Part shown: positions 363-60,136 of the stretch, piece after piece
Position numbering within the stretch: the stretch's first letter is position 1
Layout of the letters: every line of letters begins with the position of its first letter
Assembly: GCA_002633005.1 (NCBI GenBank)
Contig: NMRA01000792.1
Location: 47,271 to 110,837, forward strand
DNA length: 63,567 nt
Source: Phoronis australis
Taxonomy: Eukaryota; Animalia; Phoronida
Reading direction: 5' to 3'
Notes under the pieces: generated by a model
Databases searched by the model: none
Told to the model about the DNA's origin: nothing
Seen by the model: only the letters and a program-made list of their open reading frames with translations
Made by a program: the position numbers and the translations under genes

Positions 363-370
363 TTTTCGTG

Positions 371-388: not shown

Positions 389-394
389 AGTTGA

Positions 395-26316: not shown

Positions 26317-26376
26317 CTACAACATCAAGTGTTGGATGAGACCGGCTAGCGCGTGCATTTCTGTTATCCGGCGTTC
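26317..26376 (-). CDS. Gene A putative terminal coding exon (ERRITEMHALAGLIQHLML*)
   Basis: Strong acceptor TTCTTTCCTATTTATTCAG, phase 0, TAG stop, AATAAA about 60 nt downstream (26253-26258). Confidence 0.5.
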   Translation of the reverse strand, partial: ERRITEMHALAGLIQHLML

Positions 26377-29300
26377 CTGAATAAATAGGAAAGAACATAC
26401 AAATAAGAATGCAATTCCTTTCATCTCAATTAAAATTTTAAAATATGCCTCAGGTGAGCTGTGATAGCCGCCATTTCCGACGTGCTCTATAGGATAGTTG
26501 CTTCCATTGCTGCTAGCACACGCGGTACAAAACAGCCAGCTAATATGACAGTGAACGGAGCGTTTTGGAAAACAGGGACACCGGTGACAGTTGAGTTATT
26601 GAATCTTATCTCCAATCTGAGAGAGCAAAGCGTGACTGATTTGTGGCATGCGTGTCAAAGAACCCACGGAATTTTTTCCATGGCAATTTTTAAACAAAAG
26701 CACATGTACATGTGTTATCAAAAGAAATTGAAAAATTGGCCGAAATGGTCCGTTTCTACATGCTTAAAGCAATTAAGTGTCAAGCCGGGAGCCAAAATTC
26801 CAACAGTTCTGGCGTTCAGGTTGCGACCTAAAGCCTGGTACATGTAATTAGCAATAATAGCTTGCTTCAAAACATTCACAAACATGAACAAGCGAAGTAA
26901 CTAGATTGCGGGTTGCTGTAGAAAATGCCAGATAGTCGGTATTTTTTCACACTGACACGGGCTTTGCGAATGCATACATTTCGTGGAAAAAACAACGTAA
27001 AGGCTTTGCGAATGCATACATTTCGTGGAAAAACAACGTAAACACAATGTTTTGCTTCATTGGGCATCAAACTAAACACTTCAGGTAACGTTTGGTCTTT
27101 TGGTCAATTTGAGATCCACGAGGTCGCTACCTTTAGCCCCATGTCTGTACTAGGCCATTACTGCAACAGACCACAGAGTAAAAACAAAACAATAACCAGT
27201 GCAGTGCACTTGATATGAAAGAGTTGATTAGCTTGTATTTTCTTAGAAACTCCAAACCAATTAAAAAGCCTACCTCGCCACGCACTGGAAAAGGAATACA
27301 CCGGAACTTGTGCAGCGCGTGAATGCCTCGAGTTTTGCATCTTTCGCACAAGTCGTAATCGGGACACTGAAGACATTCGTAACGTGTTCCACGTAGAAAG
27401 CTTTGGCAACCGTCACACATTATTCCAGGGTGGGTTGCTTTATATTGGTCTGGCACTAAATGGCAAACAAAGCATTTAGGTTAACAATAGGCACTCTTTC
27501 ATCTAGATTGTGTTCACAAACTTAAAACGTTTTAGTGACTATTTAAGTTAATTAGGAACTTTTTCCGCTTCGCCAAATCGACTTGATTTGAACACGGGGA
27601 TTTTCCTTTTAAACGCCTGGTTTTTGTGTATTGTAAAGTAGCGAATGCTATTTTGTACAAATACACCTTACATCTTGTGACTTAACTTAACATAGGAACA
27701 AAACTAAACGAGTACTGGAATATTCCTAGCGGCATTTCGGAGGTAAATTGTGAAGTTTTCATTTTAAAAACGGCTTCATTAAAATCTACCAAGGGGTTTT
27801 TACATTGTTATGGCTGTACATTTCTTAAAAATGAAATTTTGATTTAAACGTTTAACTTAAATTTTGACGTAAAAATGGTGATGCCACATCAAAATAAAAA
27901 CATATTTTATAACCTACGATATATTTTCCTTTTAGGGAATATATCACATTTACTATTTGACGTAGCCTGTTTTTGATATATGAGTTAGAATGAAGGTCAC
28001 TAAATAAGGTTTGAGATAACCTGATTGAGCAAATTCAAAGATTATGCCGCTGACAAAGCAAGCTTCACTTAGACGCTGTTTCATCAATTCAAGCGGACAT
28101 CGTGAGAACAGTAGTTGTTTCGCACTGTTTTTATGTTTGGCAATAAGATTAGGTGCTCTGTTCTCAAATACATGACACACCAGATTTATAGATGAGACAC
28201 GTCAGCTTCTTTGCATTGGAGATCCAGCGAAAATGTTTATTATGAACCCGCTTTGATTGAAGTTTTAGAGCATGCATGCCGCAAAAATGCATCTGCACGA
28301 GCATGATTCACTGCAAAATTCAAAGAGATGTTCAATAATTAATTTATCGGTCAAATTTTAGTGTGAACGCTATTGTCCTTCATATATCGCCATCCCAATG
28401 ATGAGCTCTATGTCAGCACTCAGTTACACTCATTTCCTTCCAGCTCACTTGCCCCTCCTTGCCCTAGGCCCACCTCATTCCCTTCAGTCGTCAACGCTTC
28501 CAAACCGGCCCTCTGCAAACGCAACTTTGAGTATGTACTGAAAGAAGAAACAATCACAGTACTTGCTACGAGTTAAGCGAAGGATTCCAATTTACAAATT
28601 AAGATGTCTTCTCCTGCAGCCGTTTGACAGCGCTTGTCTGTACAAAGTATTTCACAGAACTGGAGGCAGTAGGAGTTCTATGCAGTTGCAACAAGGTTTA
28701 CAGATATCAGACCGGCTGTATGGATTCTTATGTGAAAAGTACTGTGTGTCATTTACGAAACATTTTTAAATGTTTCGTAAATGACACACAGTACTTAAAA
28801 GTCTGCAGAACCACTGATTCCAATGTTCCAGAAACCGTAACTTTGTAATGTTTAATAAACACTAAAGAGACATTACAAAAAAATCGTTTGGCTTCAATCC
28901 AGTTTCTCAATCGAGGCTATGGTGTACGGTATCAGACTAGCAAGTCCATTGTTAAGGGTTCCTGTGCTCTTTTGTCCGACATCACGACTTCAGTGAGGGC
29001 CAGTTATCCACCATGGTTCAAAGAGTTAGTGACTAAAGCTAATCGAAACGTAACACTTATAAATTGGCAAGTTTTATCGTATTTCTCTGTGTAAAAGCGG
29101 TTCTAAAACATTTTCCAAGGAATTCAATTTCATAACTTAAAAAGTTCAAGAATTCATCAGTTTTAGTTCACGAGATATCAATTTGATTTTAACCGGTGTT
29201 TCATGGCCTGACGTCATCGCTAATGCGGCAAATGCTTTCCTCCACATAATAGGATCTTACTGTACACCAGATTCCTTTTTAAACAAGCCTCTTGATGGCA

Positions 29301-32300
29301 GCAGGAATTGCACAAATATTGACGAAGCAAAAGGTCCCGTCAAACGTGCCCAACCAAAGGGGGCTGGGGGGCTATAGCCTCCATGGTCTATGGGCGGTTC
29401 ACCACCGGGGGTGTGGGGGCTTTAGCCCCCACTGTTTTCATTGATGCGCCTCCCATGCTGCTGTTCTTCTAATGTCTCACGTGCTCTCGCCTAAGTTCCA
29501 TATTTCCGAAATAGGCCCCTCTAGAGGTTCAAATGACAAAAATGCAGCACAATTTATGGATCTCTTAAGAAATAAAGCGAAACAAAGCATATTTTAGTAT
29601 ACCAATGATCATGTTGACCTCTCGACGTTGCACAGGTTACGCAAGATGCCTACCTTACGTTGTATGGAGATGCAGTAGAATCTGTGTTGTTGGTGGTGTC
29701 CCTCGGCCTTGCACTTTCCACACAAGTCGTAGTTGGGGCAGTCGATGCACTTGTAACGTGCACCATAAACTGCGCATTTACAAGCATCGCACGTAACTCC
29801 GTGGTGACGTAGTTGCGATCTCAAAGGCACTACATATAAGAAACGAGGAATCTTTAGTCTCTGAACTTACCATTTTTACATAATGTAGCCTTGTGTTCAG
29901 AAATCGTTTAACTCAAATTTTCCGTTTCGCCTTGTTTAGCTAGCTAACACGAAAATCAACTTTGGTCTTTTACTTTTATAAAATCAATCTCTTAATATTC
30001 CGCATCGTCTGGAGATTCCGTTTCCGTTTCCGGCTCAAGTCACCTGCATTAAGTACATGAACCATTTTCGAATTCGCAAGGGTTAATTGGTTAACTCCAA
30101 CAAAGTTTAAAGCGTTTGCTTGGGTCTCTGATGGTTACAATGTTCTTCTTGGTAACGGAAATAAAATGATTTCACAGTAAGGAATATTAAGAAACACATT
30201 TTATGAAAGTAAAAGGCCGATTTCGATTTCGGTTTTTAACCAGCCAAACATGTGGATGCGTTGAGTGACCCGTATGCAAGAAAGGGTTAAGAACGAAAAT
30301 CGTTATGATTAAACGCTCATTATCATCTTTGTACGTATATGTACATGTATGAAGTACTAGAAGAACAATCGTTTGAGAATAGGTTATCTTTTAACCCCCC
30401 CCCCCCTCTCTAGCTGCTGTGTATCAATGATATTGGAGTACAGGCCTCACAGGCAGTGTTTGCGTTTCACGTGACATCTCTGAACGTCTGTTGTGTTCGT
30501 TGAAGTCAAAAGTGCGAAAAATGACGGGTAAACTGAAACGAGAAGAGCAAAACTGGTATTAACGGTCAATTTCAGAAGACCAAAATAATATGCTGTACTG
30601 ACATCCACACGGTTTTCATAAACCAGAAGATCAAATTGGTGAATCTTCTGAAACTACAATGTTTTGGAGTGAGTGACTGCATTCGAGAGGAAGTACCAGT
30701 ACTACGATCACCACGACGACCACCACCATAAACAGTATCAACATCAACTTCTCCATCATCATCTTCATCATCGTCACTGTATCACATTCATCACAATGTC
30801 ATCATCGTCGTCATCATCGTCGTCATCGTCAACATCATCACCATCATCATTACCATATTATCTTCATTCATCATCTTCAATGCCATCATTGTCAAACGAT
30901 CCGCCATCATTTTCGTCATAATCACCATACAGTATCATCAGCATCATCACCACTATCATCATCTTCATCATCATCATCATCATCATCATCATCTTCGGAA
31001 TCATAGTCATCTTCATGAGCAATATAGTCTAGACGTACATGTATTTCTGGAAAATGTGCACGCTAGAAGCATTTTTAATGAAAGTGGGGAATAAATCTTT
31101 TTAGCATAACTGTGGTGCGGTGATTTCGATTATGCGTGTTCCCAAGCTGGAGTTTGAGTTCTTTCCCATACCCATCTAATCTGAATAAACCAAATGGCCG
31201 CCAAACCAACAAGATAAGAAACATTCTTGGGACCAGGAGTACAATATACACTGTATCACGAATAATTATGAAATTGTTGCCACAACAACCATAGTATAAG
31301 TGTATTTAGATCATTTAATTTTTAAAACATGCAAATAAAAGTCATAAAATTCCTTATTATGCTATTTAGCTCCCGCCATTACCGAAAAAAACAAATTTCG
31401 GTGTAACTTTATCAATTTGCAGGCAGATATGACAAATAAAAGCGCTCAGAGGAGTGACATTAGACGACAATGGAGATGTTGATGACAATAATAATGATGT
31501 CGATGATGATTTGGGCGGTGATGAATGGAGATGTCAGAAATGAGTAAGAAGTGTGCCATAATTTTGTTCAATAGAAGATAAACCAGTAGAATTGCAGCAA
31601 AAAAATCCGCCAACAAAGGAACAGCCTCATCACAATATCCTCAATTAATTCAAAAAGAGACGTCTTAGCAAAGCATGGAAAATATCTTCGTAAAGCACGT
31701 TCAAAACTCTATCCAACACATGAGTTTCACAAAATTCCACAAAGTTTTTGAAAACTTTCAAATTTTGATTTTTTTCAAATTGAAAGCTAAAAAGCTCAGA
31801 AACGGTAAATCTGATAAACACTGTTTCATTTCATTTGAAAGAGTATACCTCAGAAAGTCCACATGCAAAATTCGTGTCATTTGGTCTTCCTGTTCAAAAT
31901 AAAACCCCTGCACGATTGAAAATTAATGAAAGTGCGCCTGATCCACCATTTTGAAAACTACTTCCGGTTAAGCAGCACTTGGTTATAGCTAGTTACAGGA
32001 TATTAAAACTTGAAAAATTTCGAAACAACTGGTTTTACAGGAAGCCCTCCACACGACATTTAAAAACAAAATGGCCGCCACATCCGCCTTCTCAGAGGTA
32101 GTGTGTGAATTGCGTGCACATTGGACGAAAAATTTGACATGTAGTTTGCGAACAAACAAAAAAAAACAAAAAAGTTGATTTCAGACAACATACTTGGAGA
32201 AAATTTTCGGTACCTTTGGAACTTTCCATGCAAGAGGACACTGTTGAAGTAGTGCGGGAGATGAATATGGAAGAAATATCACATGGCCGTATTGCATTCG

Positions 32301-35300
32301 ACTCATTCAACGCGTATGGAATTTGATATTAAGTGCTCGTCATCTGCGTGAGCAATTAATTAACATGGGCTGTTGATTAGTGGAAGTACATTTTGTGAAT
32401 AAGTGAGATATGTTGGTCGGAATTTTGATACGTGCAAGTATTGGGCTAACAAAATGTTTGTTTTAGAATGACATGTATCTTCAGACTAACTGATATGAGT
32501 TGGTCTAATCAACACTGAATACCATTCATCAGTGGCAATGATAACCTTATTAACATGCGATTTCATTAATGTGTTCAGACTACAGATTGAATAGCGATTG
32601 AACTGTGACATACCTTACACTCGAAAGAAAGTCCTGCAAATCTATGCTGTTTGTGTTCACCTCGGTCTCTGCAAGTTTGGCAAAGATCATAGTCCGGGCA
32701 TTCTAGGCACATATATCTCTTGCCATAGATGTCGCCATTGCAGCCATCACACATCACGTTGGAGTGGAAGGTCTTGGTGTTCTTCTCGTCATTACCAGCT
32801 CCAACAACCGCTGTGTGAAACCAGACAACAAATTATGCTGGGGGTATTCACACACCTTTGAATTTAGAGTTGCGAAAGTAGGCAGATCAAACTTCTCGTT
32901 TTCCTTTGAGGCCATTGTTTCTTGCATACACCTGGACACCCATTTATCTATTTTAGGTTAGTAGCTTGAATATGTCATTGAATATTTGTTTTTGCTCCTA
33001 AGACGTCAACAATTGGTTAATTCAACCAAACTTGAATACAAATATACCCTGTAGCTCCAACTGAATTGCAACATTGATTGTGATACCACTTAAGCCCTCT
33101 TTGCAGCAAAGTTAGTAAACATAATAAACATTTACTGACGGAATGTGATATCGTTGGAATGGGAACGACTGGGCTTCACATTGGTATCCAAAATGATTTA
33201 ATTAAACCAAAAATAATAAAAACACTAGAGACCATGCTTGACGCATAAAATGACACAGCGTTTGTTATTAGTATTGCTACCAATTGTCTTATTGTTGTGC
33301 ATATTTTGCATCAAATAAGGGTAAAACACGATGAAAGCGGTAGTTACATTGTGTTTTCCTTCAGTAAGTTACTCGTTTACTTACATCTCACGTATACACT
33401 GAACGTATTTCCTGACAAACTGTCCAAGGCGTCCTCAAGGTCTGTGTCGTTGTCAATCACAACATACTCACCGCCCGTACCTGCAATGTAGTGGTCGAAA
33501 TTGCGAAGACTAGCGGAACGCCCATAATCCTTGATATTCTCAAAATCGTCGTTGGGAAAAGTTTAATGTTTCCATAAAATGTATGTAAATGTCATTAGCT
33601 GAAAGAACTGGCACATCTATGACACCTTTTCTCAAATAAATGAGCTTGGAAAAAACTAAAGCTGATTATTTAATACGTTATTACCCAGATATTACCCCAC
33701 ATTGCTAATGCATTAATTGGTATATCTGAAGAACGATATTTATAATTACTGTTAGAACTGAGTAAGTTGATTCGCTCCATTCATGACCTTTCGGGATTTG
33801 TGCCTGGGTTATTAACTTGAGTATAATGTGTTGGGGTTATTATGATTGTTTCTAGACAGTCACTTTCCGCTAATTTTGCCCTCCAGTAGGACGAAAATTC
33901 TTTCTTTCGTTTTCGTTTTCGTTTACGAACCATGTTACCGGTATCAATCGTTTATTAGCAATGTATAATATCCTAGCCACACCGCAGCTGACCACGAACG
34001 GCATGTTGATGGATGGGTTAGAGTACTAATTAACAATAAGACTTTGCATTATGGGACAAATTTTGCGCAAAATGTGATTTGATTGACAAATTTCAGGTAA
34101 ACAAGTTTCACGTGCTAGGAATCACTTCCGCAAAAGTGGCAAATTTGAATAGAAAAAATATATTTGTGAGGGTAAATGAATATTTTTTGGAATCCTCACA
34201 TATTTTGCCGTGCATAAAAGAAGTGTTAAAAAAAACGACATTTATTGAGACACAGAGGTACACGTATCCTTAAAGCACAGCTCTCCCGTAGGACTTGGCT
34301 CAGTGGCAAAAATTCAGCTGCTACTACTGAGCTTGCGGGTTCTATTCGGCGCTAGTGCTAGCTATAATATTAATTGTCTCGAAGAGAATGTATCTTTAAC
34401 AGTCATCGTTTAAAGTAAAAAAAGCACATTGAAACGCGCAGTCTAAAACGTGTACACTTATAATGGGGCCACCAGTGCCTTCAGTGAAACACGTGGTATG
34501 CGGCAACACACGCTGTATTAGAGAAGTTTCGCAGAGCGGCATGAACGTCAACTATGACGCATACTGTACGTAATTGCGCCTGCCAATTCGGTGTTACAGA
34601 AACAAAATGGGTTTCACAACAGCTAAATTTTTACGCGAACGTGAAAGTAAATGTGACCTTAGTAACTGGGCTCAGGGTGTTCAGTTATCATCCGCTAGTT
34701 GGAAATATAATATCATGTTGAATTTGAAAAAAGTCGCTTCTACAAACTCTTGCAAAAAATGGTCAACTCTTAGAGTGCTACATTTGTTTGGAGTTCCAAA
34801 TAAATAGAAGCACATAAAAATTAACAACACTAAACCATATCTGTTAAAAATTCATTTTGTTTCAATGATTTCCATCTAACCCAGGCGGAATAAGGATTCT
34901 GGAAAAAGTGTTGCCTTTCTTGCAACTAAACTTTAAGAATATTTATAGACAAAAGTATCGTGTTCATTTTATAGTGAAGTAATTAAGGAAGAAAGATTGA
35001 GAATTATATCAAAATGAAAATTTTCTCGTTGTCTTACCAAATAAGAATATAAAAGGCCCACCGGTTTCGCGTTTAAAGCGACGCGAATCTCCCTGAATTC
35101 TCGTAAAATACTCAAACACTATCGGGATTACGTCAAAGCCAACACTGGCATGTATGATGCGGTATTGTAAATATGTGATAACTAAAGTTCAGGTCGCTAT
35201 TTTCAAAATGCACTGTAAGCCGAAACGCAAGCTCATGTTTTTGCCCAAAGTCCATTGTGTCTGTAGGCGACACTCATTTACGCGTTACTCGTGCTTCAGT

Positions 35301-35914
35301 GTGCCGTGGAGCGGAATCGAATTTTCAATACTAGCTTTTTTATCTATGCTCGACGTCACAAAAGTCTAATCACGTGATCTCAGTGAGGTCTTGTTTACCT
35401 AATACAATTGCGGGCAGCCACCAACTCATATATTGTTTACATGTCACGAGAGTCTACAGCCCAGTTTCAGACTGTGTTGAGTTTTGATACTTATTCGACC
35501 AGGAACGTTTACTACGCGACACGTAGAATGAATATAATGATTTATCTTAGGCAAAATATTACGAGTACAAATAAATGAACTTGCACGGTTCAAATTTCAT
35601 GTTTTCAACGACGCTGTATTTGTTAAATCTGCTACAATCTATCACAAGTGCCGTGACCTATAAGTCTTTTGCACAAAGTTATTTAATCAGCATAACACGT
35701 TACTGTGCCTTCAGGACAACAAATCGATTTTACCTTTCCGATACACGCTGTACGCCTTGTTTTTCAGACCCGGAAAAGCGGCACACACTCTCTCTTTAAA
35801 GAATTCAAGCTTCTGATTTGAGATCTTATACGCAGGTATTTCTGTATCGAGAACGAAGCTTCTACTGTACCCGGACTCTTCGCTCCCTATGTGTACTTTG
35901 ACAGAAACACCCAT
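26317..35914 (-). CDS. Gene A: p62/SQSTM1-like PB1 + three ZZ zinc finger protein, about 293 aa, no UBA
   Basis: complement(join(26317-26376,27274-27455,29659-29829,32619-32810,33385-33480,35734-35914)); GT-AG introns with phases 1,1,1,1,0; 882 nt. The last exon is the least certain. Confidence 0.82.
26960..27042. repeat. Tandem duplication of a 41-42-bp unit
   Basis: GGCTTTGCGAATGCATACATTTCGTGGAAAAA(A)CAACGTAAA twice. Confidence 0.9.
27274..27455 (-). CDS. Gene A exon 5, ZZ3
   Basis: THPGIMCDGCQSFLRGTRYECLQCPDYDLCERCKTRGIHALHKFRCIPFPVRGE; GAG|GTAGGC donor, phase 0. Confidence 0.9.
28737..28796. repeat. Perfect palindrome, 29-bp arms with a 2-nt spacer
   Basis: AAGTACTGTGTGTCATTTACGAAACATTT-TT-AAATGTTTCGTAAATGACACACAGTACTT. 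Confidence 0.95.
29659..29829 (-). CDS. Gene A exon 4, ZZ2 (171 nt)
   Basis: HHGVTCDACKCAVYGARYKCIDCPNYDLCGKCKAEGHHQQHRFYC. Confidence 0.9.
30705..31016. repeat. Degenerate (CAT)n microsatellite
   Basis: CATCATCATCAT runs; explains the His/Ser-rich spurious ORF. Confidence 0.9.
32619..32810 (-). CDS. Gene A exon 3, ZZ1
   Basis: [51 protein letters not shown] acceptor. Confidence 0.9.
33385..33480 (-). CDS. Gene A exon 2, PB1 C-terminal half (96 nt)
   Basis: GTGGEYVVIDNDTDLEDALDSLSGNTFSVYVR; TTGCAG acceptor, T|GTAAGT donor. Confidence 0.85.
35734..35914 (-). CDS. Gene A exon 1, PB1 N-terminal half
   Basis: MGVSVKVHIGSEESGYSRSFVLD...FFKERVCAAFPGLKNKAYSVYRK; p62-like VK..R.F..FP.L pattern; G|GTAAAA donor. 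Confidence 0.85.
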
Positions 35915-35977
35915 AGTTTTCCTTGCTTGAGAAACGTTTATTGCGTCGCTAATAATTCAATGTTGACAAATAGCATA

Positions 35978-35988
35978 GGGGTTTTCCC
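35978..35988. promoter_or_regulatory. NF-kappaB/Rel site upstream of gene A
   Basis: GGGGTTTTCCC fits GGGRNWYYCC; about 64 bp upstream of the ATG. Confidence 0.7.
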
Positions 35989-36069
35989 AAATCCTAACCT
36001 CGTTCCCGTTTCCAACAAGCTGTTGGTTACGGCCCAGGCGTTCTAGATTATGGAAATACCTAGAATATC

Positions 36070-36081
36070 GAAAGTGAAAGT
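36070..36081. promoter_or_regulatory. IRF-E/ISRE-like site upstream of gene A
   Basis: GAAAGTGAAAGT fits the tandem GAAANNGAAA IRF consensus. Confidence 0.65.
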
Positions 36082-36745
36082 AACCCGATGTTAGAGATTC
36101 TGCAACTCAAACGAACTCAAATGAAATGCCTGTTCGACATTAATTTGGAGATACCTTCTCCTATTCATTGTCCGCCATTAGCCTGAAACAATATTCACAA
36201 AAATTAGGCAGAAAGTTAACTGTCTGCTTCATGAACGCATTCAGCCTAAAATTTGGGGGGGGCCTCGAATTTTTGAGTATGTGGACACTTTCCTAAAAAA
36301 ACAGGGTACGTTCAGAGCTTTGAATAGTGAACATAGTCAAACATGGTACATGTAGTTCCTGCCTTTTTAGCGGACTTTTGTCTCGTTTTCTACTTTTTCG
36401 GACTTTGTGTTTCACCGGCTGAGACGAACCTGTTTGCCCTCTTCGCCAAATAAGGGAGGGGCTCGTTCGCAGCCCCCCCGGGAGGGGGGGGCGCCCATGT
36501 ACTTGACAAAAATGTCCTCAACTATTGTTTTTTATACTGAGTGTTTTCTGAACGCCACCGAGTTTTAAACCGAGGAGTAAAATTAAGCGCTTCATCATTT
36601 ACTAGTCTCGTTTTAGAATTTATTGTATTTACCATCAAATTTATTTATTGTACAAGTTATGCCGAAGTATCTTAATCAAAAGATCTTTCGAAATTCAAAA
36701 CAAGGTGTAATGTTATCCCTCTTCCGGTGACGTCATGGTTCTAAC

Positions 36746-36900
36746 CTGCCTCCCGTTCAGTAACGCTAGGACCTCGCTAAAAAGCAAGACTTCGCGAGAT
36801 TACGTGAGATATTGCCGTGCATTTTAAATGAGAACACGTGACTTTGACTAGGTTTTAGCTAGGTCCTAGCGTAGGTCCTAGCGTCTACTGAACGCACGCC
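36746..36900. mobile_element. Approximately 155-bp MITE; second copy inverted at 51790-51943
   Basis: TIR CGTTCAGTA(G)ACGCTAGGACCT at both ends; the two copies are closely similar. Confidence 0.85.
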
Positions 36901-37954: not shown

Positions 37955-38030
37955 GTGGGGCTAGCTAGTGTGATGCGTGCCTTCCTTCTTTGCTTAGGGT
38001 TATGGGTTCAAGTCCCATTGCGGCACATTA
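37955..38030 (+). mobile_element. Decayed tRNA-derived SINE-like head
   Basis: B-box-like GGGTTCAAGTCCC; no complete cloverleaf. Confidence 0.3.
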
Positions 38031-40597: not shown

Positions 40598-40603
40598 TTT
40601 ATT
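40598..40603 (-). terminator. Candidate poly(A) signal of gene B (paralogous site in gene C at 57635-57640)
   Basis: AATAAA on the minus strand at the aligned position in both paralogs. Confidence 0.5.
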
Positions 40604-42462: not shown

Positions 42463-42489
42463 TCAGCAAACCAGTATGTTAAACTCCAG
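42463..42489 (-). CDS. Gene B terminal coding exon (LEFNILVC*)
   Basis: Branch-like CTGAC plus TTTCTGTTTTAG acceptor, phase 0; acceptor and coding segment are nearly identical in gene C. Confidence 0.7.
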   Translation of the reverse strand: MEFNILVC

Positions 42490-45400: not shown

Positions 45401-48400
45401 GAAAATGCAGTAGCAACATTCGGACAGACTATATTTCAGTTTTTGCGTTTCCACAAGTGGCACGGTCTAAATCCTCACAAAGTGTAAAAATGCATTGCAG
45501 GAACGTTTTAAAAAATTGGAACACGGCTGAAGTTTCCTCACAAAACCTGTGTAGGCTAGTTATGACATTCGAGACTGCAAGTTGATGATTGACAAATATG
45601 TATGACAGAAATGTCAGACCCCGTGTTGTTTGTAAAAAGATTGTTGTGTAACGATTAAGTAGAAATGAATTAAAATCACGAGTTGATAGCATCTGGTGCC
45701 CAATTAAAGATTGTGAGGTCATGTGCTTTGCTTGCAATGCGTGGCAATCATGATCTCGCAGCATAAACTGGCAGTATGAGGAAACCTGCTTTTGATAGGT
45801 GAAGTAGGTGAAACCCCTAAAACATAATTTAAAGCGGAACCGATACTAACCTTACTTGGGAGGGCGATGCAGCAGAACTCGTGATGCGCGTGATGACCTT
45901 GCATCTTACACCGTTCACAAAGGTCAAAGTTAGGACAGTCGGTGCATTTGTAACGGGCGCCGTGCACAAGACGGGTGCACCCGTCACATGTTATGCCGGG
46001 TTGACAAATTGTGCTTCTTATAGGTACTGGAAGCAGAAATGACAATCTAACCAGTCATCGAACTATAGCGGCGTGGGCGTAAGATTATCCTGGGGACAAA
46101 AAAGTGGAACTTCTGCAGGCGAACATTATCTAACCGGCAGGCCGCGTGAGGGCTTTACCATTGGTAGATACAGTGCAAGTATGCGGAGTAGAAAATTGGT
46201 CGTGACCAGGATGAATTTTATCTTCTCACTTAGGATTTTTCACCACTTGGTTTTTGTCTCGAGATGTGTCGGTATGGCCTTGGATGTCCCTGCAAAGGTA
46301 TTTTGCTGGTCTAGATTTTGGATGCAGTCAACATGTATAGAAGAACAAATCTTTATGTGATTGAAATGCCGAGAGTTGGGGCTCATCGGTAAAATGCCGA
46401 GCCTGAATTGGTAAGGGAATTCTTAAAAGGACTAAAACCTGTTTCGTTTTTGCAATTTCAACCAATCGTTTTGTCGCGTACTAAGTGCATCACTGGCGTG
46501 TCACGGCTTGAGTAACAAAAGCAGGGTTAACAAAAAACACTTACTCACTCTGTGACAAAAATGATGTTAAGGTTCTTCGTTGGCGGTCTTTCCACAATTG
46601 TCGTGTAACTACTCTTACAGCGTATGCCACGCTTGTTACTAAACATTCTTTTTTCAAAGAGAGTTGGCTGGGGAAAGTTAATAGGCACAGTTGGAACCTT
46701 AAAACGAGTGTATCCTTTGTGCGTTAAACTTTCTTGTAGGTTTTTGTCAAATGTAATTATTTTTAAATAGTTATGATCAAAACCTCATGCAGCAAAGTCA
46801 TAATTGTTTTAGTTCAGCCGTGGGGAGGAGCTCCAGCATGGTTTTGGTGCTCATAAAATGTTGTTGTTCCGGCACGTTAGAGTTCATAATTACATTTCAT
46901 AACACGTTGCAGGTCACAACAGAAAACGCATTACCACCAAGACCCTACAGCTAGGATTTCCCTATGAATAAAACTTCAACTAGAAGTGGCTCACACGATG
47001 AAGGAACAATTAGCTCCCTTTCCGGTAAGCCCAAGTCCCACTTCTTTGAAAGAACAATGGTTTAGATCCGTTTTTTAGCAGAAACTCTTGCTTTAGTTTC
47101 AAAGCTTAAGGGGAGATTGTTGACTGAGAGATCTTTTGTCAATAAATACTGACAAGGCTTTGGTGTAGAAATGGTAAGAATTTGTGAATGAATGAAGAAA
47201 CGGCAGAGATTTGAAAACAGCTTTTCTCAACTTGCGCCCCCACAAGTCTTCTTCTTAAACGAAAAATAATACAATTTCTTCTTTGTCGCTCACTATTCGC
47301 TGCCTGGCCGATCACACAGAGAGTTAACGAAACTGGAACGAAACAAAACATAATTTTAATCAGTCTTTAGTAAATCTAGCCAATAGGAGAACCATAAATT
47401 AATCACAAAAACAAAGCCACGGCAACCGAGGTGTTCAGTACTAGAAAAAGGAACTGGATGACCAAAAACATGTAGTGAGAAAATTTCGCCAACGGGGGTA
47501 ATGGTCAATTAGGGCCCGCCAAATTGCAGTCGTCTCTGCTGACATATCAATAATTAAATCAAAAGATGGCTTTGTATTACGCTTAATCTTTAGAGGCCTA
47601 AAAGGTGACTACTGGTAAATATGTCAGGAGTTCCACAATCAGCGGTGACGTCATGTGGTGCGGAACGCTAAACGATTCTAAAAAGCATTGTCTGTCACGT
47701 GCCACTTTAGTCACCAGAAGTCAGTGAGATTCTGATACGTATGATTGCTCTCATATTCTGAAAGTTAAAAAGATAAGCGATTTAATTATTTAGTCGTTTC
47801 TTGAAATTTGACTTCGACCATCGAATGGATTCATTAATCATTGGGATTTGCAAAAGAAACCGCTAGCAGCCAATGTTGTCCATAGAGGGCACTGGCGGCT
47901 AATAAGGGAAATAGCAACACTAGCTTGAAAGAAACCTACCTTACGTTGAAAGAAGAAGCATGCGAATGCGTGTTCTCTGTGGATCTTCTGACGTTTGCAA
48001 CGTTCGCACAAATCATAGTCCGGGCATTGTAGGCACGTGTAGCGTCTACCAATAATAGAGCCGCTACAGTTATTACACGAAACGTCGTTGTGTAAGACCC
48101 CCGCTGGCTTTGCGTCACTTTCATCCGCTGGGGAATAAAATGCTGGTTAGGCCAAAAAATATCATGATCGTTTCTGGTTAAAAGTTGAAATGAGTTAATC
48201 TGGAAAAATAATCAGCGTTCGAAATGCACGCTGGCCTGGTGGCCCGGGGTGCGGCCAGGCCATTAACTTTGAACATATAGGCCCTGTGTGGATGTGGTCT
48301 AATATTTAATTAATTCAAAAAAGGTCTATTAAACTAATTTTGTTTGCTTCTCATCTCTTGAACGTCAACGAGTTTGAACCTTGAGGGTAATAAATCCGGG

Positions 48401-48912: not shown

Positions 48913-48960
<48 letters not shown>

Positions 48961-51900
48961 TGAGTGAGTGCGTGCGAGCGCGTGTGCATGTATTATTACT
49001 GTTTTCAATATTTTCTATAATTCATTTCTGCAATATTTACCTCCCAATTGCCGTTTTCTTGTTCCTTCCATTTCTGAGAAGTCGGCCTACTGTTATCTGT
49101 AGCATTTAAACATACCCGCAAAATAAAGTTTTAAAGAATGAAAAGAGCCCAATCCAGTCCTCATGCTGCTGACGACGTACAGTGCATTTGCCAATTGCTC
49201 CGCTCTTGTTGACCCACTTTTTAATTTTTCCCGCCATCCATCCCGCCACACCATCTACATGTCACGCTTTTTGACTAACGGCCAAATTGACATATTATCA
49301 TATACTATGGTAATTTCCCACGCAACATAGTTATATTTTCCCTCTGGATTAAGGAGTAAAAAGAGATGTTACATGGTTTTTTGCGCACTTGCAATTTCCC
49401 ATTGAATTACAAACAACAACAACAAAAAAAACGCTGTCTGGCATTTTGTATGTTACATCCCCCGTTCGACGAAAAACGTTGTCGGCACGTCTTTGTGTTG
49501 CAGCGAATCGGTACTTCTTTATGTGTTGCAGCGAACATTTTACCCTCCTTTTTGGCTTCGGCCCAGATCTCTCGCTTTTTATCCAAATTCCGCTTTTCAA
49601 CATTACGGCGTTTTCCCCGTTGCTCCCAGCTTGTTCGATTCTGTAGCCCAACAACAAGTTGTGAAGTTTACCCCTATAGCCAACATCTTACACGACTGAT
49701 TAACTCCATTCTGGAATTTATGGTTGGATGGCCAGCTCTCTTTTGGTCGATAATTGATCTAATCTCCAATAAATCGTATTTACCCTAACTGGCCTGTGCT
49801 GTAAAAATGAAAGTTAAGTTATAACATATTTGAACATAAACCAATAGCATTTCTGAAATCTTGGTCCAACTGCAACCGAAGTTGCGACAATCTATTCTTT
49901 CCGAATACATCAATTCACTCTGAGTTTGACTGTGTTCACACGTGGTCTGTAATAAGCCAGGTAGATAATTGACCTGCTTGTTGTCATAACAGACAAAAGA
50001 GTGCGCTTGGCAGTTAACAAAGAAGTTGCATGTAAATGTTATCACACCCTCAGAATCCCCTTCTGGTAAAGCCACTGAACGGGAAAACGCTGTCACGTTC
50101 AGAAGTTCTGCTCCTTCATTCTTGAATGTTGACCGTGACGACTATGCAAGAGGTGTTCAAAATAATTTTACAGTCTCTTTTTGTCAACATTTTAATTTCT
50201 AGGGTTCACTTTCTTTGGCAACATAGCAATCGTAACAATGTGTTCCAATGTCTCTTGTTTACGGTAACTTACATTATACATGTATGTATCAAGATCACTA
50301 AATTTTACTTTCTGAGAAAAAGAGTTTATTTCTAAACTATTATGGAAAGTCCTGCACTGCAAGCAACGTGATGGGCTATTCACAGTACATTTCAAACCTG
50401 TGTGATGAATGTTTGCCCTAATTTTTATGTATCAGAAAACCTTTCTCTGCAAATTTTGGATAGAGTAATTTATCGCATTCTTCGTAAATGTCACTGCATT
50501 CTGAATTTTTACTGAATAATTGTATCAAAAGGCATCAATATGAATAAGGATGTATAACTTTAGACCAGTGCCTCTCTAAATCATCCACTGACAGCAAGCG
50601 TAGGGATCCATATTCTAAAATATTTGTCTTAATATAGGGTAGAAATTTTTGAATCATTGAAATTATTTCCGTAGTGGCTTAACTAGTCGTTTACATAACA
50701 TCTCTGTTTCATTTCCTTTTTATGTTACTATTACATACTGTTATTTTTCGCATTTTGTTAACCCTCTTGGTTTTTAGAATTAAAAATATTTTAAACCAGT
50801 CAAGTATGCGAAATAATGAGTTAAATTAGTTATCTTTTGCTTCTGATATAATCATCAAGAACTGAAAAAGGGCTTTCTAATGATGTGGCTATTATGAAAT
50901 TCAGTTGAAAAAACGGAGTGAGTTGCGAAAGGTTTTAATGACAATAAATTCCATAGCAAGTACACACACCGGAACAAAGGAATGAAAACAACTCTCACGC
51001 ATGCGCGGCGCAACCTCAGAGACTGCGAGATCGCCGGGAGTTGGCATGATTCCAGGGCTAAAGTTAGGGGCTTTTATTTCGTAACCAGACCTTACGTGGT
51101 GTTTACGTATACATCCCAGTTACCATGGATCAACTCCTCACCTAGAGTGAATAGCATAACAAATATTGTTCTCGAGCACATGCGCATTAAGTGAACAGGA
51201 TAATGAAAAACGTAGCTAAGATGGTAAAAGTAGGGCCAGCAACTTGGCAGGGCATTTATTTGCTGAAGTCCGGAGAGCTTAATTACAGCGGTAACGTTTA
51301 TACCTTTAATGTAGATCTTGAGTTCCTTTCTAGAATGGCTGTCAAAGGCTTGATCAAGTTGTTCACTATTCTCCAGTACTCTGTACTCGCCATCATCACC
51401 TGAAAAAAGTGCGTGAGAGCTCTGAGATCCGTTCGGCATAAAAGATACTTATCTCAGAGAAATTTGGTTTTACGCCGGCTCGCGCTTTCCAAATAATGAT
51501 TAGAAGTTCACCCAAGTGATTACGAACACCGCATCACTGACTATAAAAATCGCAAACATTTTTCAAGTCTGGTCGTCGGGCCACCCGAGTGGCCACATCT
51601 AGTGACCTACTGAATATGTGAAACGATTTCTGTCCCGACCAACAGGTACCTTCCTTACAGACGCTACAGTCCACTAAGCCATCACCGGACCGCATACGGT
51701 CAAATTCAAAATTCCAAACAGACTTAGTAGTGGGCGTATCTCGCCCTTAGAACTGTACATCGCGAGCATTTTTAAGTCTGGTCAACACGGGCGTGCGTTC
51801 AATAGACGCTAGGACCTACGCTAGGACCTAGCTAAAATCTAGTCAAGATCACGTGTTTTCATTTAAAATACACGACAACATCTCACGTAATCTCGCGAAG

Positions 51901-54900
51901 TCTTGCTTTTTAGCGAGGTCCTAGCGTTACTGAACGGGAGGCAGTAGATGTGTGGTCACATCACGTGACCTAAAGAACATAAGACTGCCTTATTGGATTT
52001 CTGTATAAACCGGTGGTCCCGATGACTCAGTGGAGTGAAGGAGCTTCTGCACGGTTAGCAGAAGGTCCCAGTTGGGGCAGAAATCTTTACAGGGTTATAC
52101 TCTCTACTACGTTTATATTTGTTAGGTCATATGATGTGACCACAGGTGACGTGCAGGTCAGACTTAAAAATTTTGCGATTACATTTCCACGCTTGTTTAA
52201 GAATTTCACATTCATACTGTATAGATTAGAAATAATTTATCGAAATTATCTGTTATTATCAGTTTTGTGTACATGTAATTATATTCTCAAAGATTTTGAA
52301 CTTTTGCTCAAGTTAGATTCAACTATTTTTCTAAAATAGTCGTGCCAAAAGTAACACCAAAGTTCATGAACTGTACCCCAGGGTGACCCTCGTCAATATG
52401 CCTTTGTACACTTCCCTAAAATTAATGATTTGAGAAATAATACCTAAGCTTACTGTTAATTTAAAGTTTTTGAGAATAACATAAATGNAAAGAAGTTATA
52501 TGTTATCACACCCTCAGAAGCCCCTTCTTCTGGTAAAGTCACTGAACGGGAAAACGCTGTCATGTTCAGAAGTTCTGCTCCTTCATTCTTGAATGTTGAC
52601 CGTGACCACTATGCAAGAGGTGTTCAAAAATAAATTTGTCTCTTTTTGTCAACGTTTTAATTTCCAGGGTACACTTTCTTTGGCAACATAACAATCGTAA
52701 CAATGTGTTCCAATGTCTCTTGTTTACGGTAACATACATTATACATGTATGTATCAAGATCACTAAATTTTACTTTCTGAGAAAAAGAGTTTATATCTAA
52801 ACTATTATGGAAAGTCCTGCACTGCAAGCAACGTGATGGGCTATTCACAGTACATTTCAAACCTGTGCGATGAATGTTTGCCCTAAGTTTTATGTATTAG
52901 AAAACCTTTCTCTTCAAATTTTGGATAGAGTAATTTATCGCTTTCTTCGTAAATGTCACTGCATTCTGAATTTTTTCTGAATAATTGTATCAAAAGGCAT
53001 CAATATGAATAAGGATGTATGACTTTAGACCAGTGCCTCACTAAATCATCAACAGCAAACGTGGGGATCCATATTCTAAAATATTTGTCTTAATATAGAG
53101 TAGAAATTTTTTAATCATTGAAATTATTTCCGTAGTGGCTTAACTAGTCGTTTATATAACATCTCTGTTTCATTTCCTTTTTATATTACTATTACATACT
53201 GTTATTTTTCACATTTTGTTAACCCTCTTGGTTTTTAGAATTAAAAAATATTTTAAACCAGTCAAGTATGCGAAATAATGAGTTAAATTAGTTATTATCG
53301 TTTGCTTCTGATATAATCATCAAGATCTGACAAACGGCTTTCTAATGACATGGCTATTATGGAATTCAGTTGAAAAAACGGCGGGAGTTGCGAAAGGTTT
53401 TAATGACAATAAATTCCATAGCAAGTACACACACCGGAACAAAGGAATGAAAACAACTCTCACGCAAGCGCGGCGCAACCTCAAAGACTGCGAGATCGCC
53501 GGGAGTTGGCATTATTCCAGAGCTAAAGTTAGGGGCTTTTATTTCGTAACCCTACGTGGTGTTTACGTATACATCCCAGTTACCATGGATCAACTACTCA
53601 CCTAGAGTGAATAGCATAACAAATATTGTTCTCGAGCACATGCGCATTTAGTGAACAGGATAAATAAGAAAAACGTAGCTAAGATGGTAACAGTAGGGCC
53701 AGCAACTTGGCAGGACATTTATTTGCTGAAGTCCGGAGAGCTTAATTACAGCGGTAACGTTTATACCTTTAATGTAGATCTTGAGTTCATTTCTAGAATG
53801 GGTGTCAAAGGCTTGATCAAGTTGTTCAGTATTCTCCAGTACTCTGTACTCGCCATCATCTCCTGAAAAAAGTGCACTGTGAGCTCTGAGATCCGTTCGG
53901 CATAAAAGATACTTATCTCAGAGAAATTTGGTTTTACGCCGGCTCGCGCTTTCCCAATAATGATTAGAAGTTCACCCAAGTGATTACGAACACCGCATCA
54001 CTGACTATAAAAATCGCAAACATTTTTCAAGTCTGGTCGTCGGGCCACCAGTGGCCACATCAAGTGACCTACTGAAACGATTTCTACCCCGAACAACAGG
54101 TACCTTCCTTGCATACGCTCCCGTCCACTGAGCCATCACCGGACCACATATGGTCAAATTCAGAATTCCAATCGGACTTAGTAGGCATATCTCGCCCTTG
54201 GAATGTACATCCAACATTTTTAAGTCTGGTCAACACGGTAGATGTGGCCACATCACGTGACCTAAGGAATATATGACTGCCTGATTGGATTTCTGTATAA
54301 ACCGGTGGTCCCGATAGCTCAGTGAACTGAAGGAACGTCTGCACGGTTAGCAGAAGGTCCCAGTTGGGGCAGAAATCTTTACAGGGTTATTCTCTCTACG
54401 TTTATATTCACTAGGTCATATGATGTGACCACGTGTGGCGTGCAGGTCAGGCTTAAGAACTTTGCGATTATAAATGTTTTTCCACGCTTATTTCATGTTT
54501 ATATAGAGTAGAAATAATTTATCGAAATTACCTCAGTTATTATCAGTTTTGTGTAACTATATTCTCAAAGATTTTGAACTTTTGCTCAAGTTAGATTTAA
54601 TTATTTTTGTAAAATAGTAAAGTAACACCAAATTTCGTGAACTGGACCGGCCAGGGTGGCCCTCGTCAATATGCCTTTGTACACTGTTCTCAAAAATAAT
54701 AAATTTACAAATAAAATCTAAGCTTACTATGAACTTTCAAATCCTAACTTTCGTTAATTTAAAGTTTTTGAGAATAATATGGAAGACTTTTTATCCTGGT
54801 CAAAGAGTATTAATTTCATCCGGGCGAACAGAGTACATACACTTGTTGCGTACTGAATGAGCTCAAGAAATATCTGCCTAAGTTTATTTGCATTTACTAC

Positions 54901-55359
54901 GATTTACTTCCCTACGGGCCTCCATAGCACAATAAAACGCCCCAGCTGTAAGTAAGACCCGTACGAACTGTTCAAAGCTATGTTCGCGCTTCTAACTCTA
55001 ATCTATGTTCTTACCGTCTCACCGTGCCCCAGAGACGGTAATTAAGACAAAAAGAATCGTCTGTGTTGCCTGCCTCTTGGGGGCCAAGTTTCCAAAAGCC
55101 ATTATAGTCTGTACAATTATTTGTAGCAATGTACAGTGAATAAGTGTACAGTCAAGTTGATATTACCTGCCCAGCGAAGACTGAATGCCTTCCCTCTCAA
55201 AATCGGGAAAGCCTCCACACACAATTTCTGCCGAAATGCCTCCATTTTGAGGTTAGAGACCAAGGTCAATTTTTCTCTGTCGACATCCAAAGTTCGACAA
55301 GCGACATCTTTGTCCGTTCCAGATTGCAGGAAAGCCTTGACTTGAATAGGTTGGGACAT
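42463..55359 (-). CDS. Gene B: p62/SQSTM1-like PB1 + three ZZ + C-terminal LIR-like motif, about 284 aa, no UBA
   Basis: complement(join(42463-42489,43109-43293,45856-46026,47945-48127,53767-53862 or 51304-51399,55167-55359)); phases 1,1,1,1,0; 855 nt; same exon layout as gene A. Confidence 0.85.
43109..43293 (-). CDS. Gene B exon 5, ZZ3 (185 nt)
   Basis: YHHGFTCGFCNAAICGIRFECLQCIGYNLCYQCRTNGVHKQHQFKCLQFPQTDDE; GAG|GTGCGT donor. Confidence 0.9.
44385..44486. repeat. (TACA)n microsatellite
   Basis: Direct reading. Confidence 0.95.
45856..46026 (-). CDS. Gene B exon 4, ZZ2 (171 nt)
   Basis: CQPGITCDGCTRLVHGARYKCTDCPNFDLCERCKMQGHHAHHEFCC; same length as gene A exon 4. Confidence 0.9.
47945..48127 (-). 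CDS. Gene B exon 3, ZZ1
   Basis: DESDAKPAGVLHNDVSCNNCSGSIIGRRYTCLQCPDYDLCERCKRQKIHREHAFACFFFQ, a frame not shown in the ORF track; TTCCCCAG acceptor. Confidence 0.9.
48913..48990. repeat. (TG)n microsatellite
   Basis: Direct reading. Confidence 0.95.
49601..50097. mobile_element. MITE, same family as 2280-3372
   Basis: Starts CATTACGGCGTTTTCCCCGTTGC and ends GAACGGGAAAACGCTGTCA; colinear with 2556-3099. Confidence 0.8.
51304..51399 (-). CDS. Gene B exon 2, copy b (96 nt; duplicate or second haplotype)
   Basis: GDDGEYRVLENSEQLDQAFDSHSRKELKIYIK; three amino-acid differences from copy a, splice sites intact. Confidence 0.75.
51790..51943. mobile_element. MITE insertion present in only one copy of the duplicated segment
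   Basis: Copy 2 reads CAACACGGTAGATGTG (54231-54246) uninterrupted, whereas copy 1 has the element between CAACACG and GTAGATGTG. Confidence 0.85.
53767..53862 (-). CDS. Gene B exon 2, copy a (96 nt, PB1 C-terminal half)
   Basis: GDDGEYRVLENTEQLDQAFDTHSRNELKIYIK. Confidence 0.85.
55167..55359 (-). CDS. Gene B exon 1, PB1 N-terminal half
   Basis: MSQPIQVKAFLQSGTDKDVACRTL...FRQKLCVEAFPILRGKAFSLRWA (compare p62 LTVKAYL); G|GTAATA donor. Confidence 0.87.
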
Positions 55360-55471
55360 GTTGCGAATCGCTTCAAGTGACTCCAACCTCCAACATAAAC
55401 TGATCAATTGACTGGTGAAATGACATGGAGATGATTGTTGACTTCTGGTGATTCAAATGTGGAAATCCAGC

Positions 55472-55536
55472 GGGATTTTCTAAATTTTTGTTACATACCC
55501 AATGAGTGTGTTTACAACGCCGCATGGGATTTTCCC
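55472..55536. promoter_or_regulatory. NF-kappaB/Rel sites upstream of gene B
   Basis: GGGATTTTCCC (55526-55536, consensus) and GGGATTTTCT (55472-55481, one mismatch). Confidence 0.7.
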
Positions 55537-55568
55537 AACCTACCAAAAATAGCGAATCTCCTTAAATC

Positions 55569-55580
55569 GAAACTGAAAAC
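55569..55580. promoter_or_regulatory. ISRE/IRF-like site upstream of gene B
   Basis: GAAACTGAAAAC fits GAAANNGAAA. Confidence 0.62.
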
Positions 55581-55808
55581 AAATCGCGCCGGAGTATGGC
55601 GTGCTGCTGTCAAGGAAAACTAAAGTTGTCTAGAGTTGAATCAACGTCAGTTCAGTATCGTCGAGAAAAGCCACTGCAATTTATTATTTATGTGCGAGAT
55701 ATTGAGTTTCCACAATAATGCACGTCTTTATCAGTCCCACCACGCATGGGTTTCATGTTGAGTAGGCGTTATTTAGCAAACGCAGGGGCAGGTAATACTT
55801 TAGACTGC

Positions 55809-55839
55809 GCAATGAGCTATACCTGGTATAGCTCATTGC
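55809..55839. repeat. Palindrome with 15-bp arms
   Basis: GCAATGAGCTATACC-T-GGTATAGCTCATTGC. Confidence 0.85.
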
Positions 55840-58800: not shown

Positions 58801-59461
58801 AGTCATGAAACGGTCTCCCTACCTATTCTTAATCCAAAAATACCTCTTTTGTCCTGTATCGAAACTTAATATTTACATGCACGCTCCCAGGGAGGCTCGG
58901 GGGGCTCGGGGGGCTCGAATTGGCGAAGTGGGCAATAAACGCAAACTCCAAAAAAGCAGAAAACGAGACAAAAGTCCGCTAAGAAGGCAGGAACTACCTA
59001 AGTTTGGCTCTGAACGTATCCGTGAATCTTTGTAAAAGATAGTCTCAAAATTCGAGTCCCGCCCCATTTTTAGGTTGGGTACGTGCATGATTTATAGGTA
59101 TGAAACACTCTCTCAAGGAGATTAAACAATCAAATTAACAATCAACAGAATTTAAGAACAATTATAAGAATGCTACGCAGGGGAAACAATTCAATTAAAA
59201 GGATAAGAATCTTAGTTTTCAAAGGGAGAATATCAACTCGAGTCTCAGCTATACAGATAACAATGGTGGGTCGTGCCTCTATTGGTTCGAATTTTATGAA
59301 ACTGAAATAAATTGTATATATACATGTATATAATATACTTCTATTCCTACGAGACTCGGTGAGCATTAGAAAAGTTAACCCAAACGTGACTGAACACAAG
59401 ACAATCGTCAACGTTCAACAGGTGGCGGATGTTTTATAATCATCAACTCCATGTCTTCAGC

Positions 59462-60136
59462 TCAGCAAACCAGTATGTTAAACTCCGACTAAAACAGAAA
59501 GAAGATGACGTCAGTATACAGAGGATTACAAGTCGAGATTTGGTGACCTTGAAAAGGAAGCATTTACCCTCAAACGTTGAAGATGATGAAGTTTGTACTT
59601 GCGAATCACGTAAGCCGAGGGCGAAGGACAGGCAATTTTTCTTGTTTTCATAACAAAGACGTTTAGAACAATTTACTTTGTTAGAGACCCAATTGCGAAA
59701 TTTTTATCATGAGTTGGTGCCTGCTTACAGATAATGGAGTTAGACAAGTCTCTCACACACGGCTTGATACAGGACACGTCAACTATCGCCACCTAGCGTA
59801 TTCCAAAGTAGTTGTTTTAGATTTTGCAATCGTAATTGTCTCCAAGGTAGGTCACATTTACCTCATCATAGTACAGTTATTTCAGTAAGATGACATCATG
59901 TCCCGTTTGCTACTTCGAATTTGAAAACTACATTACAAAGAGGATACGCACCTCTCCATCAACAGGAGGAAAAGGGAAACAATTGAACTGGTGTTCCCTG
60001 TGATTGCCACGCGTTCGGCACGGTTGACACAGATTGTAGTCGATACACTGTTGGCACTCAAACCGGGTTCCACAGATGGCTTCCTCACAAGATCCGCACG
60101 TGAATCCATGGTGACAAATCTGCTGTTCTTTGGGAA
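59462..60136 (-). CDS. Gene C (3' part only): last ZZ exon plus terminal exon; upstream exons lie beyond the window or are lost
   Basis: 59952-60136 (185 nt): CHHGFTCGSCEEAICGTRFECQQCIDYNLCQPCRTRGNHREHQFNCFPFPPVDGE, GAG|GTGCGT donor. 59462-59488: SEFNILVC*. Confidence 0.85.

Follow-up and report, generated by a model that had tools for sequence, protein, structure and literature searches.

Animal p62/SQSTM1 is usually viewed as a single-copy, ubiquitin-binding polymer with one ZZ domain. According to excerpts of the articles cited here and below, p62 is confined to metazoans (PMC9582228), Lys7 and Arg21 (K7 and R21) of its PB1 domain are required for p62 multimers and R22 is dispensable (PMC9014876), the D69A protein is mostly monomeric, and the lone p62 ZZ domain binds N-degrons very weakly, its avidity coming from PB1 oligomers (PMC6098011). 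The same kind of excerpt describes metazoan NBR1 as having kept the acidic face of PB1, lost the basic face and become attached to p62, fungal NBR1 as having lost the UBA domain, and fission-yeast Nbr1 (SPBP35G2.11c) as sorting four enzymes by its ZZ1-3 domains, along an ESCRT route (PMC9582228). Here we describe a tandem array of genes encoding PB1-(ZZ)3 proteins in the phoronid Phoronis australis. The array is real and expressed, is apparently undescribed, and is a variant of p62. It lies in a stretch of 63,567 nucleotides (nt) of contig NMRA01000792.1 (assembly GCA_002633005.1, positions 47,271 to 110,837 of the forward strand); this whole stretch is called the window, and all coordinates below refer to it.

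Three head-to-tail paralogs, A, B and C, occupy positions 26317..60136 on the minus strand, from the stop-codon end of A (26317) to the acceptor of the third ZZ exon of C (60136). Gene models of A and B were made from GT-AG sites. The A model has exons of 181, 96, 192, 171, 182 and 60 nt, with every intron GT-AG, and encodes 293 amino acids (aa); the B model has exons of 193, 96, 183, 171, 185 and 27 nt and encodes 284 aa. The two proteins, both PB1-ZZ-ZZ-ZZ with a short tail, are 41% identical over 276 residues. No match between A and B was found at the DNA level, and their introns are no longer alignable; B and C have a common 3-kb block of about 78% DNA identity. Gene C is represented inside the window by its ZZ3 exon and last exon only. 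A six-frame scan gave seven ZZ exons on the minus strand, all of which passed the Pfam ZZ profile (33-54 bits, cut-off 21.4) and keep the six Cys and two His zinc ligands. An earlier reading of these letters, made without database searches (the sequence-only reading), had described at least three head-to-tail minus-strand paralogs, with PB1 divided between an exon of 181 or 193 nt and one of 96 nt, three exons of one ZZ each and a short last exon, and with the last two exons of C alone in view. The models of A and B reproduce that exon plan, and the exon models, Pfam ZZ matches and RNA together confirm the layout, C included.

Expression was followed in three raw-read RNA runs (X2, X3 and X4) and in a contig run, X1, whose status as RNA is a guess. 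In gene A, exon 1 (coding part 181 nt, 35734..35914, minus strand like all exons below) encodes the first half of a p62-type PB1 with the K7 and R21 equivalents, and is defined by the model and profile and by its join to exon 2 in reads. Exon 2 (33385..33480, 96 nt, phase 1-1) encodes the second PB1 half and is supported by reads, model and alignment, as the ZZ1 (32619..32810), ZZ2 (29659..29829) and ZZ3 (27274..27455) exons are by reads, Pfam and alignment. The last coding exon (26317..26376; X1 contig and model) adds 19 residues and a stop. All four joins from PB1 exon 1 to ZZ3 were seen in each of the three raw-read runs, with 38, 34 and 129 junction reads in X2, X3 and X4 (exon 1-exon 2, 6/8/34; exon 2-ZZ1, 11/17/47; ZZ1-ZZ2, 9/3/21; ZZ2-ZZ3, 12/6/27). 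First mates of these reads were all on the plus strand, as minus-strand RNA gives in most stranded libraries, and at similar depth the count of A junction reads in X4 was about four times that in X2 or X3. A 1432-nt contig of X1 covers the last exon, ZZ3 and ZZ2 of A with two differences; its remaining 356 nt correspond in sum to ZZ1, exon 2 and 68 nt of exon 1, with the joints at the same depth, and it extends about 660 nt beyond the stop of A into the 3' untranslated region (UTR), which in this contig continues below 26151. Because the contig runs through the stop into the 3' UTR after the 19-residue tail, A is a PB1-(ZZ)3 gene without UBA. These data bear out, for A, the joining of PB1 exons to ZZ exons that the sequence-only reading had wanted checked in RNA, and they establish expression of the array, A as spliced RNA and B and C as transcribed genes.

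In gene B, exon 1 (coding part 193 nt, 55167..55359; reads, model and alignment), the first PB1 half, joins exon 2 (96 nt, 51304..51399; model) in 2, 5 and 3 reads of the three runs (10 in total) and in one contig. The ZZ1 (47945..48127) and ZZ2 (45856..46026) exons are given by Pfam and the model, with predicted splices, and ZZ3 (43109..43293) likewise by Pfam and the model; ZZ3 is joined to the last coding exon (42463..42489; model), which encodes eight residues and a stop, in a single contig whose UTR is about 94% alike. Transcripts of B reach upstream to about 55450. The ZZ3 exon of C (59952..60136; contig, Pfam and alignment) and its last coding exon (59462..59488; contigs and model) are followed by a 3' UTR that is transcribed and occurs in contigs with one or two differences. 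One contig joins C ZZ3 to an upstream ZZ2-like exon that resembles that of B and was not located in the window.

Some further features of these genes were observed. A second spliced contig of X1, lying on 29659-35801, uses the same splices, is 85-89% identical to A and, by the letters at its joint, also has Gly at the Asp69 position; it probably represents a fourth paralog outside the window. The ZZ1 and ZZ2 exons of A and B (donors after 32619, 29659, 47945 and 45856, minus strand) each end in two donors in tandem (GTAAG-GT) with a spacing of five bases, of which the first keeps the frame and is used in the reads of A, and the second would give phase 0 like that of the ZZ3 exon. The tandem donors may be a trace of the duplication of a phase 1-0 exon, or a route to truncated isoforms. 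Within B, a tandem duplication of about 2.5 kb and 94% identity (50033-54736) has copied the 96-nt exon 2, so far as DNA comparison goes a second candidate exon (53767..53862, minus strand). The two copies show three non-synonymous and no synonymous differences, and RNA of other individuals maps to the 51399 copy yet has one letter or more from the other; the duplication may be polymorphic or assembly-level.

Single PB1 exons had no match in Pfam PB1 (0 of 4 single-exon halves), the PDB or the Atlas; profile comparison alone matched them, and exon 1 of A and B aligned with the p62 profile at 92.4%. We spliced the two PB1 exons in silico and compared the joined domains with a profile of seven p62-type sequences and with 20 other PB1s. 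Against the p62-type profile the joined PB1 of A and B scored 29.3 and 21.6 bits, the best of 1000 shuffles being 8.5, and against the profile of the 20 others 14.1 and 16.4 bits; HHalign with the p62-type profile gave 98.3% and 96.8%. Of 273 fetched proteins, the seven that matched the joined PB1 best comprised three p62s and four PB1-(ZZ)n proteins without UBA. One fetched protein, P0238, is a true p62, with PB1, ZZ and UBA matches to human SQSTM1. In PB1 trees, which had no metazoan NBR1 among their rows, A and B grouped with p62s and UBA-less derivatives at a support of 98/93 (46 rows), and with the p62 group at 84/82 when 21 of the 46 rows were left out (25 rows). Approximately unbiased (AU) clade tests that forced A and B together with either non-animal set gave p-AU values of 0.046 and 0.037, which are weak, as those sets are not clades themselves; placing all animal-type rows of the 46-row tree together gave a p-AU of 0.094. 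Intron 2 of human SQSTM1 lies after c.301 (excerpt of PMC9361805). This base is the first after the YIK motif, and in A and B that position is also where exon 2 ends, with the phase unchanged (phase 1, after codon 100). The exon 1/2 boundary of A and B splits the codon aligned to Asp69. Intron 1 of human SQSTM1 presumably lies after c.205, at the Asp69 codon too. Because of the PB1 profile, the PB1 tree and the intron in common with human SQSTM1, A, B and C have most likely descended from p62/SQSTM1 by duplication, the parent that the sequence-only reading had named.

The alignment indicates that the PB1 domains of A and B keep the equivalents of K7 and R21, have lost R22, and carry Gly at Asp69 and Glu at Asp73; the correspondence with human K7 and R21 is set by N-terminal motifs. 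Asp69 is invariant in all seven p62-type PB1s. Near the OPCA motif some acidic residues are left, and B has more of them than A. Judged by sequence, then, the basic face of p62 (K7 and R21) is present in A and B, and the p62-type acidic OPCA face with Asp69 is absent. Loss of Asp69 with a kept basic face predicts a basic-face-only domain, a partner that docks on p62 instead of polymerising. This loss of the acidic face, a point absent from the sequence-only reading, speaks against a stand-alone polymerising receptor.

The ZZ domains also resemble those of p62, the 13 best PDB matches of the ZZ profile all being p62. A and B have three ZZ domains each, not the single one of p62. The N-degron pocket (D129/D147/D149) is complete in nine of nine single-ZZ p62-like proteins versus two of the seven ZZ domains in the window, A1 (D, N, D, D; the full p62 pocket) and A3 (D, Q, D, D). 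A2 (D, K, N, D) and B2 (D, T, N, D) keep both amino-group binders, B1 (N, S, D, D) has Asn129, and B3 (G, N, G, N) and C3 (G, E, D, N) have lost both. Synonymous sites between A2 and B2 are saturated (pS 0.76 versus pN 0.27). The pockets of the array thus appear to have diversified.

At the C-termini, two UBA profiles and an FW profile had no match among 3405 six-frame peptides of the window, and in the same scan the five PB1 exons came out on top with the PB1 profile. We considered a further UBA or FW exon downstream and rejected it, with the A transcript stopping after its 19-residue tail and no profile match in the window. The array proteins have neither the C-terminal UBA of p62 nor the FW of NBR1, for which there is no room in 284-293 aa. 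A UBA-less PB1-(ZZ)3 architecture, as originally proposed, is therefore upheld by the A transcript and the UBA scan. The tails of B and C consist of an acidic stretch followed by FNIL, a core like that of an LC3-interacting region (LIR); LIR-like cores number eight in each full protein.

Upstream of A, a kappaB-like site (35978..35988) lies 64 nt from the ATG, with a site like an interferon-stimulated response element (ISRE/IRF) at 36070..36079; upstream of B the corresponding motif matches are at 55526..55536 and 55569..55578. The window has four strict kappaB matches, two of which lie upstream of A and B at no more than 180 nt from the ATG, and at each of these two an ISRE-like site follows 30-80 nt further upstream. 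Both motifs are present in the 300-nt upstream regions of A and of B; for each gene, none of 1214 background windows and none of 3000 shuffles contained the pair. When the upstream regions of A and B are compared, the two motifs make up two of the top three local matches, and no other collinear match is longer than 7 nt. The RNA of B ends short of its motifs. As conserved and rare sequences the kappaB/IRF-like motifs noticed earlier hold up, and control of the array by NF-kappaB/IRF, with induction by immune signals, is likely. Introns or UTRs of A and C hold further matches (kappaB-like, 27597; ISRE-like, 26724, 59298 and 60373).

How might such proteins work? They are likely to be a plug-in co-receptor or modulator of p62. 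We tentatively favour the explanation that p62-derived, tandem PB1-(ZZ)3 paralogs without UBA dock on the acidic face of p62 and bring ubiquitin-independent cargo to it through their ZZ domains, likely under NF-kappaB/IRF control. The basic face of the array PB1 would dock on the acidic face of ordinary p62, with no self-polymerising, and the ZZ pockets would bring in cargo independently of ubiquitin. Three ZZ domains in one chain would supply avidity in cis, which we infer because the lone p62 ZZ is weak and gains avidity from PB1 polymers (PMC6098011, excerpt). Protein A, with two full pockets, would read free N-termini; B and C, with eroded pockets, would bind other ligands, and their acidic FNIL tail would possibly recruit ATG8. 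Docking at the acidic end of a p62 filament would also cap the filament, so co-receptor and modulator roles could coexist.

Several observations weigh against this explanation. Two p62s fall outside the p62 group in the PB1 trees, and p62 versus NBR1 ancestry was judged without metazoan NBR1 sequences. Of the PB1 and ZZ trees that the sequence-only reading had proposed, the PB1 tree gave this p62 group; the ZZ tree (68 rows, 47 columns) gave no resolution. A canonical p62 of this species was not encountered, the analysis covering no complete genome. The ratio of non-synonymous to synonymous substitution (dN/dS) between B3 and C3 is 0.67 on 61 codons, which relaxation fits as well as diversification. 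The motif patterns and the 300-nt upstream span were set with the sites already known, and distances are relative to the ATG. Among the 15 of 62 and 15 of 53 joints listed, the other three joins of B did not appear, and contigs from B introns are present in the RNA data. The LIR-like tail that had been proposed exists in B and C as FNIL, and A ends in a hydrophobic 19-mer without a LIR core; the 28-nt identity in the B/C tail is the third-longest run in a 78%-identical block, which is not above chance, and conservation of this tail was rejected as LIR evidence.

Other explanations draw on the same data. The array proteins could be signalling adaptors or feedback dampers, whose basic-only PB1 binds atypical protein kinase C (PKC) or caps p62, whose ZZ domains bind partners in signalling, and which tune NF-kappaB/IRF output once induced; we regard this as possible, if somewhat unlikely. 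The basic face of p62 binds atypical PKC and its ZZ binds RIP1, and the loss of D69, of the UBA and of the whole p62 linker, the lack of a LIR in A, the upstream kappaB/ISRE pair and the ZZ arrays of NLR and TIR proteins all suit such a role, which is harder to reconcile with the two complete N-degron pockets of A and the acidic LIR-like tail of B and C. Closest to the sequence-only reading are self-sufficient receptors that oligomerise through their remaining acidic residues and reach ATG8 or ESCRT alone, like fungal Nbr1. Acidic residues do remain near OPCA, Schizosaccharomyces pombe Nbr1 binds cargo with several ZZ domains, and B and C have the FNIL tail; nevertheless, A and B carry Gly in place of the invariant Asp69, the D69A change alone is enough to leave p62 mostly monomeric, and A is without a LIR, so we consider this improbable.

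It is very improbable, in our estimate, that the genes are decaying duplicates of a p62 fragment, transcribed without selected function. The long PB1 branches, the eroded pockets of B and C, the dN/dS of B3/C3, the low read depth and intron-containing contigs of B and its exon duplication would all agree with decay, but A and B keep open frames, splice sites and zinc ligands despite saturated synonymous sites and unalignable introns, the upstream motifs are conserved, and similar proteins exist elsewhere. Hardly to be expected is an origin from NBR1 or a non-animal PB1-multi-ZZ receptor instead of p62. PB1 with two to five ZZ domains is common among FW-bearing NBR1s and PB1-ZZ3-UBA proteins, and metazoan NBR1 was outside the sample; against this stand the absence of FW, the kept basic face, which metazoan NBR1 has lost, the profile and tree, which favour p62, and the intron in common with SQSTM1. 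Returning to docking on p62, a bolder extension seems to us unlikely: that the array belongs to an undescribed class of invertebrate, immune-induced p62 satellite receptors that arose once long ago or repeatedly. A basic-face-only PB1, mirroring NBR1, would plug these into p62 filaments, and their diversifying ZZ arrays, which would serve NLR and TIR proteins as sensors too, would recognise, independently of ubiquitin, the N-termini of proteins that are microbial or have been cut by proteases.

The array would represent a natural expressed family that trades polymer avidity for tandem ZZ domains and has the counterpart of the D69 monomer mutation made in the laboratory. It offers a test of p62 filament capping or extension by partners, and of ZZ pockets as innate-immune pattern sensors, and the seven ZZ variants of the window form a small natural library for N-degron specificity.

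Elsewhere in the window, a gene on the plus strand (8359-16340) converges on the array; its exon at 15963 matches inositol polyphosphate 5-phosphatases, and it may be INPP5E-like. This neighbour may also include the long low-complexity exons at 8359 and 10008. High-copy interspersed repeats were found at 36746-36900 and 51790-51944 and at 2288-3372 and 49600-50094, and a 155-nt repeat element has very deep RNA coverage on both strands. A 149-aa open frame at the window edge (3-449, minus strand) had no Pfam match and presumably resembles the start of a retroelement gag-like gene. An assembly gap of 476 N lies at about 5867-6345.

Relatives were sought with a profile in 1.84 billion representatives, of whose 11480 matches the best 150 were listed, and by a word search (120 of 474 listed); no close relative was among these matches. 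The best full-length match was P0024, a PB1-(ZZ)4 protein without UBA, at 35% and 33% identity. Word-index searches with single exons gave no match and are unreliable, P0002 sharing several 5-residue words with one query; when metagenomes were scanned with PB1 exon 1, 220 pattern matches came up, of which none was confirmed. Among 290 fetched proteins, 11 have PB1, at least two ZZ domains and neither UBA nor FW, though some may be fragments, and four of these have a p62-type PB1. P0180, P0024, P0151 and P0168 (UBA-less PB1-(ZZ)2/4/6) resemble the array in having a p62-type PB1 directly before tandem ZZ domains and differ in that Asp69 is kept and no comparable tail is present. The 25-row tree united such proteins with A and B at a support of 93/88, but the 46-row tree did not, and the design either recurs or is older, by shared origin or convergence. 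In the ESM Atlas, P0024 lies near a 64-member PB1/ZZ cluster whose commonest phylum is Arthropoda, a lead with a score of 0.93 and low recognition.

A literature search found no description of an animal PB1-multi-ZZ p62 paralog, though supplements of genome papers may list sequestosome-1-like genes, and no paper on the UBA-less PB1-(ZZ)2/4/6 proteins; the available excerpt of PMC12005284 holds nothing on p62 paralogs. The suggestion that the architecture is not a described metazoan family therefore stands as to description, and is qualified by the UBA-less PB1-(ZZ)2/4/6 proteins with p62-type PB1 found elsewhere. Lineage-specific duplication and domain reshuffling are common in invertebrate immune genes, which tempers how exceptional the array is.

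ZZ arrays also occur with RING domains, in FW-bearing NBR1s and in Death-NACHT and TIR proteins. Among the fetched proteins (P0001, P0004/P0274, P0015, P0170 and P0002) are sea-cucumber Death-NACHT proteins with 8-15 Pfam ZZ domains after NACHT and sponge TIR proteins with 3-6. The papers listed by a literature search did not contain the term ZZ domain; the ZZ arrays of these proteins are a possible sensor module. The Death-NACHT-(ZZ)n proteins of Holothuria leucospilota and TIR-(ZZ)n proteins of Ephydatia muelleri have arrays of p62-like ZZ domains similar to those of A and B; unlike A and B they have no PB1, and they are known from database annotations only.

Compared with the described receptors, the array is nearest to p62/SQSTM1 (Ref(2)P, SQST-1), with which it has in common a p62-type PB1 with K7 and R21, a p62-like ZZ, the direct PB1-ZZ order and the phase-1 intron after the last PB1 strand (human intron 2). 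Unlike p62, it has three ZZ domains on separate exons, Gly at Asp69, partly changed pockets, no UBA, no long linker with LIR and KEAP1-interacting region (KIR), a length of 284-293 aa, and tandem genes. The array most likely comes from p62, yet falls outside p62 by its lack of UBA, its ZZ number and its loss of Asp69, and outside NBR1 by its lack of FW. Like metazoan NBR1 it is predicted to have a one-faced PB1 that attaches to p62 without polymerising, in a mirror pattern, with the basic face kept and the acidic Asp69 lost, and without FW, coiled coil or UBA. Fungal Nbr1 likewise has several ZZ domains, which there bind different cargo, and is without UBA, whereas the array has no FW and no coiled coil; with an array PB1 of the animal p62 type, this resemblance probably arose by convergence. 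By analogy, the array proteins probably work like the ZZ array of Nbr1 placed on a p62 scaffold.

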